59,162 nucleotides of DNA from an uncultured Candidatus Saccharibacteria bacterium (GCA_964410165.1 CAYPFT010000003.1:1-59162); one strand, 5' to 3'. Positions 42,099-47,058 are shown, numbered from the stretch's first letter. The notes: generated by a model from the sequence alone, not told the origin. Program-made: numbers and translations.

Positions 42099-42278
42099 TT
42101 ACTTGTGTATGTTGGAGCTACGTCGAATAAAATCTTGCAGGTCTTCCTCGTATATGCGCCATCTGCCGATTTTTGTCGCTTTCAGCTTCTTCGCCTCGAT
42201 ATAGCGATAGACAGTGCGCTCTCCAACCTGGAGTCGCTTTGCTACTTTTTCTATTGTTAGAAACTTCTTTTTTGGCAT
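42099..42278 (-). CDS. Small HTH (excisionase/MerR-like, HTH_17-type) protein heading the R-M operon
   Basis: 59-aa ORF not in the track: MPKKKFLTIEKVAKRLQVGERTVYRYIEAKKLKATKIGRWRIYEEDLQDFIRRSSNIHK. Its stop lies 4 nt before the hsdR ATG. Confidence 0.6.
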   Translation of the reverse strand: MPKKKFLTIEKVAKRLQVGERTVYRYIEAKKLKATKIGRWRIYEEDLQDFIRRSSNIHK

Positions 42279-42511
42279 AGCTACCAGTTATGATTTGTTA
42301 TGACTTGATATAACGAATCATAACGCTTCATAACTCTTATGTCAAAAATGTTCAAAACTGACAACTGGTTTTTTCTGCACAATTTTATTTTTTTCAGAGC
42401 TGTGGATAAGTATTCTATAACTTTCTTATACTCTTATGCACTTTGGATAACGCGCTTATACATCAAAAAACTTGTTGCAATTTTATGAACTGGTAAAATT
42501 AAATTGACAGT

Positions 42512-42724
42512 TACGTAGTTGCCGAGAGAAAACGGCAACTATCGAGCAGCAGAAGTAACGTCGCCAATACAATCGTATCCAGCTGCGATTGTCTACGTGA
42601 AAACGTAGCGCGACTCTTTCGATTCGCTGGTGGCGATAAACTTCTGCTGATGCACAAAGCCCGTTAGCGGCTTTGCGGGTCGCCTCAAAGCAGAAGCCCC
42701 GCCAAGCCATTAGCGGGTTTTTTC
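42512..42724 (+). ncRNA. Candidate structured RNA (cloverleaf-like four-way junction plus terminator); family unknown
   Basis: Nested helices. Outer pair: cagcagaagt (42547-56) with acttctgctg (42640-49). Next pair: cgtcgcca (42559-66) with tggtggcg (42628-35), enclosing three hairpins, including ctacgt-GAAA-acgtag. Then caaagccg-ttag-cggctttg and cccgc..gcggg + T7. A TGgTAAAAT -10-like box lies upstream. Confidence 0.35.
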
Positions 42725-42725
42725 T

Positions 42726-42980
42726 ATGCTCACTGTCGAACAATGTAAAAAAATCCTTGGCGAAAAAACCAAGAATTATACAGACGAACAAATCGAAGCA
42801 ATACGAGATGAGCTTTATATAGCTGCGAACCTTTCTTTTGAACATTGGAGAAAAAGCCATTGTCTGACTTCGGGAGATTCCAACACGTCTCCCGAAGTGA
42901 GCCAACGGCTCGCGCCTAACCCACTCCCTGTCGGAGACCCTGTGGGCGTAAAAAAACAGGGGGAAGATAAGCCAAGATAA
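42726..42980 (+). CDS. Hypothetical small protein (uncertain)
   Basis: 84-aa ORF. The first ~40 aa look protein-like (LTVEQCKKILGEKTKNYTDEQIEAIRDELYIAANLSFEHW). The 3' half overlaps hairpin-rich DNA. No SD. Confidence 0.3.
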   Translation: MLTVEQCKKILGEKTKNYTDEQIEAIRDELYIAANLSFEHWRKSHCLTSGDSNTSPEVSQRLAPNPLPVGDPVGVKKQGEDKPR

Positions 42981-43273
42981 CGGATTCCTTAGTTGCACTG
43001 GTAATTGTGAGGTCTCCAGCTGGAGACGCAGCCGAGCGAGGCGGTAATCCTCGCCGATGGGAAAGAATAAAAAAAATCGCCGTCCGATTTTTCTCAACCC
43101 TTTCCCTGCTCCTTGAGAGACACCACCGCGCGTGGGACATAGACCAAGACAGATACAGGTATAGACATACAACAGATACCAGGTATCAAGGACAACGGCT
43201 CGTGGGCGGTGGGGGTATGTAATGGCAATAGCAATTAAAGGTCGAGATTATTTAATAATCCAAAAATAACTTT

Positions 43274-43444
43274 ATGAGAGACCAGCATTACTCAAATAAA
43301 ACAATTAGGATGGCTGATAAAACCTGGGAGACATTGAAACATAAGCGGAAAAAATCTGGCAAAACCTGGAACTTATATCTGCTGGATTTGCTCAAGAAAA
43401 AAAGTCAGTCAAAAAGTTTTGAACCAGAAAAATCCGAGTTGTAG
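43274..43444 (+). CDS. Hypothetical small basic protein (56 aa)
   Basis: MRDQHYSNKTIRMADKTWETLKHKRKKSGKTWNLYLLDLLKKK... Possibly a ribbon-helix-helix-like DNA binder. Not in the ORF track (under 60 aa). Confidence 0.3.
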   Translation: MRDQHYSNKTIRMADKTWETLKHKRKKSGKTWNLYLLDLLKKKSQSKSFEPEKSEL

Positions 43445-43831
43445 AGGGCATCCCCGCCGCCTTCAGAAGGGTTAAAAGGAGAACTACGACCACCCAAATG
43501 TGGTTTTACGCAAAAATAGTAAGGGATTAGAAGGGTCTATACCTCTACAAGCCATCACGGTATAACGCGGAATAACCCTTGTAATACGTGTCTGTGTAGG
43601 CAAGAGGAGAATTACTACCCCAGACGTGGAAAGCCCAGAAATAAAAACAGCCCTCGTGGGGCAATGGCATTAAATAGACATTTTATTTCGTTCACTCGAA
43701 TCAAATACAAACTTTCACTTACAAACTAATCATAGCAAAGCTACCCACTGCGTCAAGTGGATAACTTATACAAACTTTCAGCTCATCCTACCGCATTAAA
43801 TGTCTATTAAGAGAAACGCCAACAAAAAATT

Positions 43832-44050
43832 ATGAACAAGCCATTAGAACAATCCAGTCCACTAAACGCTACGAGCGAAGTCGAAACCATCGGGGTGAGT
43901 GCTGTATCAAAATCCCTTGGTGTATCACGCGCTACTGTTTTGCGTTGGATTCAGGCGAAAAAAATTGATGGTTTCTTTCGCATCGGCAGCAAGTGGCTTA
44001 TTCGCAAGATTGATTTTGATACTTTCATCAATAAAAAAATTAGCAGCTAA
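43832..44050 (+). CDS. Excisionase-family HTH (HTH_17) DNA-binding protein
   Basis: 72 aa. VSAVSKSLGVSRATVLRWIQAKKIDGFFRIGSKWLIRKIDFDTFI. Confidence 0.65.
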   Translation: MNKPLEQSSPLNATSEVETIGVSAVSKSLGVSRATVLRWIQAKKIDGFFRIGSKWLIRKIDFDTFINKKISS

Positions 44051-44060
44051 TAATAAAGTT

Positions 44061-44525
44061 ATGAACGAGCACAACAAAGAGTCAGCTGAAAAAGGAGGTC
44101 ATTATTTCAAATACGTTATAGGCATTCTGTTTTTAGCTTTTGTAAGTAGTTTAATATCGCTTGCCTTACTGGATACTTTGGGATATGAGGACATCTCTAT
44201 TTACGTCCTCTGGGGAATCTGGGTAGTGATTTTATCTCTTTATTGCTGGAATGCAGAGCCAGAAAAATACCCGCAATATACGGAGACCCCGTGGGAAGCA
44301 AGGGCAAGGTATGTTGGAGAACTTTGTATCTATACTTTTTTTGGATTCTTGGGCACTATCGGGTCGCTGGCTGTATTGGGAATGTTGCTGCAATGGATTT
44401 TAGAAATAGACATCAGTGAAATGGGAAATACTTATCGTCTTATTTTCCTTGCTTGGGGCGGGTGGATAATAGGGTTGCACATATGGTTTAAGGAGCAGGA
44501 AAAAAGGAAATCTCAAAAACAATGA
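44061..44525 (+). CDS. Membrane protein (hypothetical)
   Basis: 154 aa starting at MNEHNKESAEKGGHYF, with 4 hydrophobic helices. Its stop overlaps the recombinase start (ATGA). Confidence 0.5.
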   Translation: MNEHNKESAEKGGHYFKYVIGILFLAFVSSLISLALLDTLGYEDISIYVLWGIWVVILSLYCWNAEPEKYPQYTETPWEARARYVGELCIYTFFGFLGTIGSLAVLGMLLQWILEIDISEMGNTYRLIFLAWGGWIIGLHIWFKEQEKRKSQKQ

Positions 44526-45412
44526 GTAACTACATCACACAATTTTTACATTACCTTGCCGTTGAACGCGCCTTCTCGCCGCGAACTATTGCCGCATACC
44601 AACACGACTTGGATAAGTTCGAGGAGTTTTTAATGACTGAAAACAAAACGGACATTATCCATATTACAAAGGAAGATGTGCGCCACTTTTTATCGCAACA
44701 AGCCAAAACAAACGGAGCTGTTACGCGTGCCCGCAAACTTTCTTCAATAAAATCTTTTTTCAAATACCTTGGACACGAGGGAGTTATTGCTGCAAACCCT
44801 GTAAGCGACATAGAAGCTCCGAAGTTACCAGAAAAAGAACCCTCTTATCTTACAGAGATTGAATACCGAGACCTTATATCAGCAGTCAGATTCAAAGCAA
44901 CGCCATACTACCTTCCGCGTGATATGGCTATCGTTATCTTGTTCTTGGGCACTGGTATTCGTTTGTCAGAACTTGTTGGATTGACACTGGATAGAGTAAA
45001 TCTTGAGGGCAACGACAGAAACATCATAGTGAAAGGCAAGGGCAACAAAGAGCGAACTATTCCTCTAACAAATGAGGTTGTAAATGTTCTTCGGCAGTAT
45101 TTGAAGGAACGTCGAGATGTAGCAAGTAACCATCTCTTCATAAGTCGGTTCGATGATGAGCTTCACGCCCGTAGCGTATACGGTCTCGTAAAGAAATACC
45201 TAAAAGTCGCTGACATCAAAAAGAACAAAGCGGCAGTTCATACACTACGCCACACATTCGGCGCATCTCTTTTGAACAGTGGAGCTAACCTTGTAGTTAT
45301 TCAAGAGCTTTTAGGGCATAAAAAGCTGGAAACCACCAGACGTTATTTGCATATCAATAACGTTGACCTACGTAACGCGGTAGATAAATTAGTTTTGAAC
45401 AAACCACAATGA
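44522..45412 (+). CDS. Tyrosine recombinase/integrase (XerC/XerD-like)
   Basis: 296 aa with an N-terminal SAM-like core-binding domain. Catalytic-domain motifs GTGIRLSEL, HTLRHTFG, LLGHKKLETTRRYLH. Confidence 0.85.
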   Translation: MSNYITQFLHYLAVERAFSPRTIAAYQHDLDKFEEFLMTENKTDIIHITKEDVRHFLSQQAKTNGAVTRARKLSSIKSFFKYLGHEGVIAANPVSDIEAPKLPEKEPSYLTEIEYRDLISAVRFKATPYYLPRDMAIVILFLGTGIRLSELVGLTLDRVNLEGNDRNIIVKGKGNKERTIPLTNEVVNVLRQYLKERRDVASNHLFISRFDDELHARSVYGLVKKYLKVADIKKNKAAVHTLRHTFGASLLNSGANLVVIQELLGHKKLETTRRYLHINNVDLRNAVDKLVLNKPQ

Positions 45413-47057
45413 GCCACACACCGACAAAACCAAAAGCAATAATTTACCTGCGAGTATCCTCGAAGGAGCAGCTCAAGGGTAAAAGTATGGAAACCCAAAA
45501 AGCCGACTGTAAAAAATACTGTGCAGAGCAAGGGTTTGAGGTTGTAGAGATTTTCATAGAGGAAGGAGAATCTGCAAAGAACGATGACAGAACCCAACTG
45601 CAACGCTTGCTGGCATACTGCCGAGAACACAAAAAACAAATCAGTTATCTTGTTATTTGGAAGGTTGACAGGTTAGCAAGAAACATCGGCGATTTCTACG
45701 AAATACAAAAAACCTTAATGGCGCACGGAGTAGTTATTCATTCCGCTACTGAAACAGGCATCAATGGAGAAGGTATTACCGCCGAAGTAATGACGGGATT
45801 TCTCGCTATATTCGCCCGCATAGACAATAAGATAAAATCCGATAGAAGCAGAACTAATTTGCGGGCGCTATTACGCTCTGGCATATACCCCTTATCCCCT
45901 CCGCTCGGTTACATTTCGAGACAAAATAAAAAGCACTCGCAAAAGAAACGGCTTCCAGACCCCATAGATGAGGAGCGATTTTTCATAATCCAGCGCGGGT
46001 TAAAAGAGTTCTCCACGGGAATACACACGGTGAAAAGTTTGACGATGAGATTTAGGGAATTGGAGCTGACTTCTCGCACTGGTAAAAAAATCTATCCTCA
46101 AATGGTGGATGTGATGCTCACAAACGTATTCTATGCTGGTTGGATTGAAGATAAGCACTGGACACCAGAAGATTTACCAGATGAGAAACTTGTTAGAGGT
46201 CTACATACCCCAGCGATTACGCTTGAGGAGTTTCAAAAAAACCAGCTCATTAAAGCTGGACGTTCAGTGAATGCGAAACCACGCTCACGAGCCAATCCAG
46301 ATTTTCCCTTACGTGATTTTGCACGATGCTACGAGTGTAAAGGCACTCTGACGGGCAGCTGGTCTCGTGGACACGGCGGGCGATATGCCTATTATCACTG
46401 CAAAAATAGAAAGTGTGCCCGCTATGGGAAAGGAAACTCAAAAACAGACGTTGAAAAATCTTTTATTACTTTACTTGAAAAAGTAGCGCCAACGGAAGTT
46501 GCTCTTACTCTTTTCAAAGAAATTGCCCTGGATGTTTGGGAAACAAATCGCAAGGCACTCAATGCTGATGGTGAGCGCCACGAAAAGAAGATTGCGGAGA
46601 TAAAAACTCAAATCGCCGAATTGATTACAATGCGAGGTCGTGGTCTTATCACTGATGAGCAATTACTGGAAGGGAAACAGCCGTTGGAAGAGGCAAAAAT
46701 CATAGCCCAGCTTGCTCTCAATGAAACTCGTATCGAGGAATGGGACATTGAAGCTGCCATTAGCTACGCAACGCAGTTTATGCGTGATTTGCCGCGGCAA
46801 TGGTTGGATTACTCGCTTGAAAACAAGCAAAGGTTCCAACAAATGGCATTTCCAGAAGGAGTTATTTACGAAAAGGAAAAAGTTTGTCGAACCCAAAAGT
46901 TAGGGCTTATTTACGAACTTTTGCAGGGCGTTGATACCCCTAATTTTGATTTGGTGCCCGGGGCGGGAGTCGAACCCGCAAGAGCTTATGCCCACGACAT
47001 TTTAAGTGTCGCGTGTCTACCAATTTCACCACTCGGGCATTCATTATCTCAAACTTG

Positions 47058-47058
<1 letters not shown>
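45409..47058 (+). CDS. Large serine recombinase; the annotated 3' end runs antisense through tRNA-Leu(UAA)
   Basis: Resolvase-type N-terminus (AIIYLRVSSKEQ ... VDRLARN), recombinase domain, zinc ribbon CYECKG...HCKNRKC, coiled coil. The last ~36 codons are the antisense translation of the tRNA gene. Confidence 0.8.
46952..47038 (-). tRNA. tRNA-Leu (anticodon TAA), 3' CCA encoded
   Basis: GCCCGAGTGGTGAAATTGGTAGACAC..CTTAAAA..long variable arm..GGTTCGACTCCCGCCCCGGGCACCA, 87 nt. Confidence 0.9.

Follow-up and report, generated by a model that had tools for sequence, protein, structure and literature searches.

A conserved, uncatalogued folded leader RNA of Patescibacteria integrating mobile elements, with a candidate role as attenuator of their mobility operon

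The stretch of DNA analyzed here, hereafter the window, comprises 59,162 nt from Candidatus Saccharibacteria. It holds an island of ~14 kb between tRNA genes, and within this island lies the feature under study, a candidate structured RNA at 42512-42724 on the plus strand. The genes around this RNA are as follows:

Left of the leader, minus strand: an HTH_17 gene (42099-42278), a type I restriction system and a PHP-ATPase
42726-42980, plus strand: 84-codon ORF, the first gene of the operon, of which only the first ~45 codons (42726 to 42860) look coding
43274-43444, plus strand: 56-codon ORF (56-aa protein)
43832-44050, plus strand: second HTH_17 gene, excisionase-like
44522-45412, plus strand: tyrosine recombinase
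45409-47058, plus strand: large serine recombinase

The same backbone, i.e. opposite-strand HTH_17 gene, leader, small ORF, 56-aa ORF, conserved non-coding DNA, HTH_17 gene, tyrosine recombinase and serine recombinase, recurs with different cargo in loci L024/25 and L029/30; parts of it are also seen on three shorter contigs, L027, L028 and L032. Across homologues of the small ORF, differences are distributed over the three codon positions as 840:519:1196, which is a coding pattern over the first ~45 codons. The predicted structure of the small protein is a two-helix hairpin, confident over residues 1-45 (pLDDT above 90) and poor in the tail (below 50). A search of 400 sampled Patescibacteria genomes gave matches to this ~45-aa protein family at E <= 0.001 in 26 of them (loci L150-L176); there, the gene mostly sits behind another one and without such a leader. 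Searches for the role of the protein gave nothing in Protein Atlas, no function in Pfam, and a single match, to PHROG 21111, which is itself of unknown function.

Three further loci, L065, L118 and L150, share the leader and the small ORF and have in addition an ORF of 266-324 aa:

L065, 1126-2049, minus strand: 266-324-aa ORF
L118, 5368-6168, minus strand: 266-324-aa ORF
L150, 1920-2894, plus strand: 266-324-aa ORF

These ORFs match no Pfam or PHROG family, and their product could be an initiator or a regulator. In L065 and L118 a serine recombinase follows, and L065 also has the divergent HTH_17 gene. The element in the window is without the 266-324-aa protein and carries the tyrosine recombinase in its stead.

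Upstream of the small ORF, the following features were recognized:

42472-42499, plus strand: predicted sigma-70-type promoter, with -35 TTGTTG (42472-77), a 16-nt spacer and extended -10 TGgTAAAAT (42491-99)
42508-42514, plus strand: conserved 5' end CAGUUAC, of which GUUAC (42510-14) can form helix Pa with GUAAC (42555-59)
42514-42544, plus strand: hairpin P0, with the all-purine loop AGAGAAAA (42525-32) within the motif GAGAGAAAAC
42547-42556, plus strand: 5' arm of P1, which pairs perfectly with 42640-49 and holds the 5' copy of box X' (AGCAGAAG, 42548-55)
42559-42566 (CGUCGCCA) with 42628-35 (UGGUGGCG), plus strand: helix P2, with two G-U pairs in the window
42569-42592, plus strand: hairpin P3, ACAAUCG/CGAUUGU, with conserved AAUAnAAU before it and conserved GUAUCC in its loop
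42593-42608, plus strand: hairpin P4, CUACGU-GAAA-ACGUAG
42610-42627, plus strand: hairpin P5, GCGA..UCGC
42628-42649, plus strand: putative switching strand, made up of the P2 3' arm, AUAA and the P1 3' arm, with conserved GGCGAUAA and then box X
42641-48, plus strand: box X (CUUCUGCU), able to pair with 42548-55 (in P1) or with 42689-96 (in the apical loop of T)
42655-42675, plus strand: local hairpin Ha, CAAAGCC/GGCUUUG, which excludes the lower half of the T stem
42656-42723, plus strand: long terminator hairpin T, with 5' arm 42656-79, 3' arm 42698-42721 and U6 (42718-23)
Apical loop of T, plus strand: UCGCC and box X' (AGCAGAAG, 42689-96)

The promoter puts the predicted transcription start near G42506. 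TTGnnn, a spacer of 16-19 nt and TAnnnT are found at equal distance to CAGUUAC in the eight other full-length members (the contig of L023 covers the -10 only) and in L024, and in all members the predicted starts fall 0-8 nt before this conserved sequence. One metagenome variant carries TGGTATAAT at the promoter position. It should be noted that a consensus promoter scanner did not list the window promoter since its -35 matches at 3/6 bases only.

At the other end, a G+C-rich hairpin followed by a U-run, as in an intrinsic terminator, is formed by 42656-42721 and U6, with the ATG of the small ORF at 42726, 5 nt past the hairpin. The first-pass annotation had placed a terminator directly 5' of this ATG, and the arrangement proves to be conserved with covariation. 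In a comparison of five sequences, T comprises 22 pairs that are 94.5% paired, six of them changed on both sides; its covariation score is reached by 0/500 shuffles and beats all slid controls. The distance from hairpin to small-ORF ATG is 0-12 nt in 9/10 sequences, and ~25 nt to the next ATG in L098. Runs of 4-7 consecutive U follow the hairpin in 9/10 sequences, and L065 has three; the weak run there (UUUC) suggests translational masking over termination in this locus. In L118, AGGAGG occurs within the T 3' arm, seven nt 5' of the ATG, so that the hairpin would also hide the Shine-Dalgarno sequence there. T was missed by a simple terminator scanner, its apical loop being longer than 8 nt. 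Subtype B (L023, L026, L032 and L098) has a plain terminator without the X' loop.

Altogether, eight full-length homologues of the leader and one 3' fragment were found, in metagenomes and in genomes of Saccharibacteria, Brennerbacteria and other Patescibacteria; the comparison set thus amounts to 9-10 sequences, part of them closely related. Blastn with the leader and with 42280-43830 against 8 family and 400 class genomes gave short chance-level matches only. The small ORF downstream has 17 protein homologues, and a metagenome scan with an alignment of such homologues yielded 14 loci. In metagenome loci, leader homologues lie 5' of the small ORF in L027 (close) and in L023, L026 and L032 (distant); at the same place, L028 holds a 3' fragment only, and L024/25 and L029/30 have more diverged leaders at the equivalent position. 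The DNA pattern GAGAGAAAAC..AATANAANNNTATC gave 91 genome and 22 viral matches before covariance-model filtering. From these, R1, a covariance model of the 5' part of the leader, retained only L065 and L098, both Saccharibacteria MAG loci, and L118, a Brennerbacteria MAG locus; the rest of the 91 genome and 22 viral matches failed R1 and are regarded as chance. L150 was added through the small-protein search of 400 phylum genomes, and two informative leader variants were recovered among short contigs from four metagenome DNA runs. Among public runs, none of RNA was listed as containing the sequence.

The leader is present in one copy per genome. When order-level relatives of the Saccharibacteria and the Brennerbacteria carrier were searched with model R2, 150 genomes for each (300 in total), no further copy was found. 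Its absence from these sampled relatives indicates that the RNA is sporadic, like its carrier elements, as expected for a mobile element. With the small-protein alignment as query, no relative was found in viral contigs.

Regarding coding capacity, no frame on either strand is stop-free in all nine leaders. A 229-aa minus-strand ORF, which had been named at the outset as an example of a feature that could overturn a non-coding reading, has no Pfam family and loses its frame in other members. Since no frame is kept across the members, we consider this ORF to be spurious.

Regarding known RNA families, the leader gives no Rfam 15 match at gathering score, in agreement with the initial impression that no family was recognizable. 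At E <= 10, there are only chance-level miRNA matches inside the element and weak chance-level matches to PyrR and DUF3800-VI downstream. The Rfam search gave no match of the leader to LOOT RNA, and nothing relevant at E <= 1 in the eight homologous loci. A resemblance to tRNA, as suggested in the first-pass annotation, finds no support: ARAGORN and Rfam RF00005 identify eight tRNAs in the window and none at 42500-42730, and the TTCGA and GNRA loops are not conserved. There is also no tmRNA match at the leader. No metabolic or transport pathway is associated with the leader, the downstream genes encoding small proteins, HTH_17 proteins and recombinases, and a literature search found no description of this RNA.

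The plus strand of 42512-42724 folds with an MFE of -101.8 kcal/mol, compared with -61.3 +/- 4.3 kcal/mol for dinucleotide shuffles (z = -9.4; 0/200 as good), and the minus strand has a fold z of -6.3. Every helix that had been picked out by eye is present, at the same coordinates, in the plus-strand MFE fold, and the impression that their density exceeds chance is upheld by the z-score and by the retention of the structure in homologues. Among the full-length leaders, folding favors the plus over the minus strand in 9/9, by 0.7 to 19.2 kcal/mol, and one-sided changes that preserve G-U pairs occur in P2 and P0. We take the leader to function as an RNA transcribed from the plus strand.

Covariation among homologues, proposed from the start as one way to check the structure, was found for P0, Pa, T, P3 and P5. 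In the nine sequences, both sides are changed in 8/9 pairs of P0, while its loop is invariant or nearly so; no other sequence element in the family is as conserved as the surrounding motif, and the invariant purine loop looks like a protein or tertiary contact site. Helix Pa, which competes with the top of P1 and the base of P0, has five pairs with 91% of cells paired, and one pair changes from A-U to G-C in 3/9 sequences (GUUAC/GUAAC to GUUGC/GCAAC). For P0 and Pa jointly, the covariation score is reached by 0/500 shuffles and the slid controls collapse.

Between the window and L027, substitutions touch 18 pairs, of which 13 remain paired, with five double compensatory changes (two in P3, two in P5 and one in P0). 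P2 shows three one-sided changes in L027 that retain pairing and are possible on the plus strand only. The P4 stem is retained in L027's own fold with a U-A to G-C change; an apparent break of P4 against L027 was an alignment effect, the position pairing as G-C in that fold. A third variant of the P5 stem occurs on a metagenome contig. The GNRA (GAAA) loop of P4 and the T-loop-like TTCGA of P5, both highlighted in the first-pass annotation, are indeed present in the window, but they are not conserved: the loops are CAAAAA and UUCC, respectively, in L027, and both also differ in a metagenome variant. The four-way junction is confined to one subtype (window and L027), and from P2 to the switching strand, the core shows strong variation among subtypes in the number and length of its hairpins, P4 and P5 included. 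Conserved motifs of the leaders are the GAGAGAAAAC loop, CAGUUAC, AAUAnAAU, GUAUCC and GAUU.

Taken together, the leader is, as judged from sequence comparison, a conserved, uncatalogued folded RNA of ~215 bases that belongs to integrating mobile elements of Patescibacteria/CPR. The original proposal of a structured non-coding RNA of a mobile island thus stands, with a conserved leader that heads the recombinase operon and keeps no frame.

Several segments of the leader have more than one partner. Box X can pair within P1 or with X' in the apical loop of T, and X.X' complementarity of 7-11 nt is found at the homologous position in 5/5 sequences with this terminator type, through four different sequences (shuffle p from 0.04 down to below 0.0002):

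Window and L027: X CUUCUGC(U), X' (A)GCAGAAG
L028: X UCCUGCUU, X' AAGCAGGA
L118: X UUCCAUUGAG, X' CUCAAUGGAA
L065: X AUCCAUUGGC, X' GCCAAUGGAU

In the window and L027, X doubles as the 3' arm of P1, which makes the P1 5' arm and the T loop two copies of X'; in L118 and L065, X lies outside P1. Ha and the lower stem of T also compete and are both conserved, Ha being retained in L027, L028 (with a U-G pair), L118, L065 and L150. The mutually exclusive gcggg/cccgc/gcggg pairings noted earlier at the 3' end are also borne out as alternatives. The two partners of X, and Ha set against T, correspond to the exclusive terminator and anti-terminator pairings of a riboswitch-type expression platform. 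In the model, X.X' and the full T stem would exclude each other, since a linker of 7 nt ties X to the base of a ~25-bp stem that has X' at its tip. When X.X' is forced, the predicted fold has Ha, is without the long terminator and is less stable than the MFE by 6-18 kcal/mol.

The 5' arm of P3 likewise has two perfectly complementary partners, one local and one distal, both covarying in six members through AAAACUG, AAAAUCG, AAAAUUG and AGAAUY. The local partner follows the conserved UAUC(C); the distal one precedes the P2 3' arm in five members and overlaps it or lies just after it in L098. Pairing between the P0 loop and the region of the second P3 partner was also considered and dropped, as it holds in L023 only. 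A search of the window for complementary targets of the P0 loop returned only the leader's own U-run, which is not conserved in other members.

Upstream of the promoter, a perfect DnaA box (TTATCCACA, 42401-09, minus strand) lies ~100 nt before the predicted start, and no other perfect box occurs in the 59-kb window; a one-mismatch box (42442-50, minus strand) lies ~60 nt before it. Perfect DnaA boxes also occur 102-124 nt before the predicted start in L027, L118, L150 and L024 and in the same intergenic region of L029, and four further members have one-mismatch boxes. Their position suggests DnaA control of two divergent promoters, or an origin of the element.

The leader most likely acts as an on/off switch for the operon. 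The form of this switch that we favor, and hold to be somewhat more probable than all other readings combined, is a two-state, cis-acting attenuator and start-site mask of the element's mobility operon. The leader (~215 nt, roughly 42506-42724, plus strand) would head the rightward operon of the integrative element. In the OFF state (state A), P1 would close the core (P2 to P5) and tie up X (42641-48), allowing T (42656-42721) to form; the U-run would then halt transcription, and the base of T, 5 nt from the ATG, would bury the ribosome landing site. In the ON state (state B), X would pair with X' in the apical part of T (42689-96) and Ha would hold the T 5' arm, so that the full terminator is blocked, the operon is read and the start site is open. 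We infer both the use of these pairings as a switch and the assignment of the ON state. With state B 6-18 kcal/mol less stable than state A, a kinetic choice or a stabilizing factor would be needed. As trigger, a small molecule, another RNA or a protein, which the element itself might encode, may be envisaged; the variability of the core speaks against an aptamer of the classical metabolite-binding kind. Furthermore, subtype B has no X' loop, so the X.X' mechanism cannot be family-wide, and a withholding of X by P1 would not apply to L118 and L065. It is doubtful, though conceivable, that the leader represents an orphan riboswitch or factor-sensing class that times the excision/integration genes by a host metabolite, a second messenger or the replication state, the last of these being suggested by the conserved upstream DnaA boxes.

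Among known systems, terminating riboswitches of the SAM-I type (RF00162) offer one parallel: there too, a leader directly after the promoter has a junction domain closed by P1, a segment of the expression platform can pair with the P1 3' strand instead, and a terminator with U-run precedes the regulated gene. The present leader differs in having no Rfam match and a core whose number of helices varies among subtypes, in regulating genes of mobile-element regulation and recombination, not of metabolism or transport, and in its alternative partner, which is the apical loop of the terminator and not the terminator 5' arm. The novelty would lie in an anti-terminator that, unusually for an attenuator or riboswitch-like leader, is aimed at the terminator's own apical loop. 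The leader also shares with countertranscript attenuation in the plasmid rep leaders of pT181, pIP501 and pAMbeta1 the two exclusive folds, one of them a terminator before a maintenance gene of a mobile replicon. The regulated genes differ, however, and the leader has no predicted minus-strand antisense promoter: a consensus scan, which can miss weak sites, found no minus-strand promoter-like site in 42500-43700, the nearest being at 42345-42317 and 43756-43729.

A third parallel is found in the immunity system of the phage-plasmid P4, in which the CI RNA (seqB) pairs with two segments of the alpha-operon leader, seqA and seqC; this RNA belongs to the C4 family (RF01695). Both are leaders of an early or maintenance operon of a mobile element and end early from a constitutive-looking promoter, and in the window, a box is flanked on either side by a copy of the repeated box to which it is complementary. 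In contrast to P4, the leader has no match to the C4 sequence or structure, and only two boxes are present in L118 and L065. The likeness nevertheless raises the question of whether the leader works as a stand-alone or processed trans-acting small RNA of the CI type, which would be released at T and pair with nascent leaders of its own or an incoming element, or with another target, and thereby shut off the mobility operon. Its own promoter and strong terminator would be expected to give a discrete RNA of ~215 nt, the box order X' - X - X' in the window and L027 resembles seqA - seqB - seqC, and the most stable state is the terminated one. Such a role could coexist with the cis model. Nonetheless, we consider it unlikely: apart from the lack of a C4/CI match in Rfam and the two-box members, there is one copy per genome and no complementary target of the P0 loop elsewhere in the window, and the ATG abuts the hairpin, which leaves the downstream gene without a promoter of its own, to be fed by read-through.

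The remaining explanations each account for part of the data. P0 lies directly after the promoter, and its invariant all-purine loop, the most conserved element and one that stands outside the alternative pairings, is reminiscent of boxB; several more conserved hairpins are found inside and after the small ORF. These features would suit an RNA of processive antitermination, comparable to lambda nut or HK022 put, in which P0 and the 5' single strand recruit a protein or act on the polymerase, which then passes T and further hairpins downstream. This is very improbable, as no match by sequence or family was obtained, none of the proteins is recognizably N- or Q-like, and the covarying X.X' and two-partner P3 would be left unexplained. 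A static structured 5' UTR that keeps the recombinase operon constitutively low or stabilizes the mRNA, its pairings arising from sequence duplication, would be in keeping with the far greater stability of state A and with the plain terminator of subtype B. It is nevertheless an improbable reading, in that X.X' and the second P3 partner covary with at least four sequences each, which is hard to obtain without selection on the pairings. The DnaA boxes at 42401-09 and 42442-50 and in relatives, the A+T-rich flank, and the 266-324-aa proteins after the small ORF in other elements, which could be initiators, would fit a role at the DNA level, i.e. an origin, a single-strand initiation site, a primer RNA for a DnaA-dependent origin, or protein-binding inverted repeats. 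This reading, under which the replication RNA suggested in the first-pass annotation would fall, is highly unlikely, the anatomy otherwise being better suited to a cis-regulatory leader. The preference for the plus strand and the G-U-dependent conservation fit RNA and not duplex DNA, promoter and terminator bracket the element exactly, and the repeat arms vary freely among elements while complementarity is kept; moreover, the window's element has no recognizable replication initiator, and its DnaA boxes are equally explicable as transcriptional input to two divergent promoters.

Almost nothing is known of how mobile elements are regulated in the uncultivated, ultra-small Patescibacteria. If the two-state attenuator model applies, the leader offers a concrete control point for excision and integration, and it adds a covariation-supported, uncatalogued structured RNA family before a recombinase operon. 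Should the trigger be a small molecule or a signal of the host's state, this would be a rare RNA sensor governing horizontal gene transfer; should the leader be a static attenuator only, it would still be a useful marker for the element family in metagenomes.

Some further observations were made on the surrounding DNA. The divergent promoter of the HTH_17/restriction operon lies at 42345-42317 on the minus strand (TTGACA, 17-nt spacer, TATGAT). Around it, at 42285-42345, are TTATGA/TCATAAC repeats, also present at the equivalent region in L024 and L029, which might represent operator or iteron sites. In L118, the serine recombinase adjoins an apparent tRNA gene.

The tail of the 84-codon ORF (42860-42975) contains at least three hairpins with compensatory changes in L022, L023, L026 and L027, one of them being CUUCGGGAGA..UCUCCCGAAG and another having a conserved GGACG-UAAAAA loop. 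The corresponding protein tail is predicted to be disordered and its frame shifts among homologues; this stretch is probably a second structured RNA segment and not protein. Further downstream, 43410-44044 includes ~400 nt of non-coding DNA before the second HTH_17 gene that have 71-78% nucleotide identity to L022, L024/25, L028 and L032. Within this DNA, a strong promoter-like site on the minus strand (43756-43729; TTGACG, 16-nt spacer, TG TATGAT) overlaps a one-mismatch DnaA box at 43756-64.
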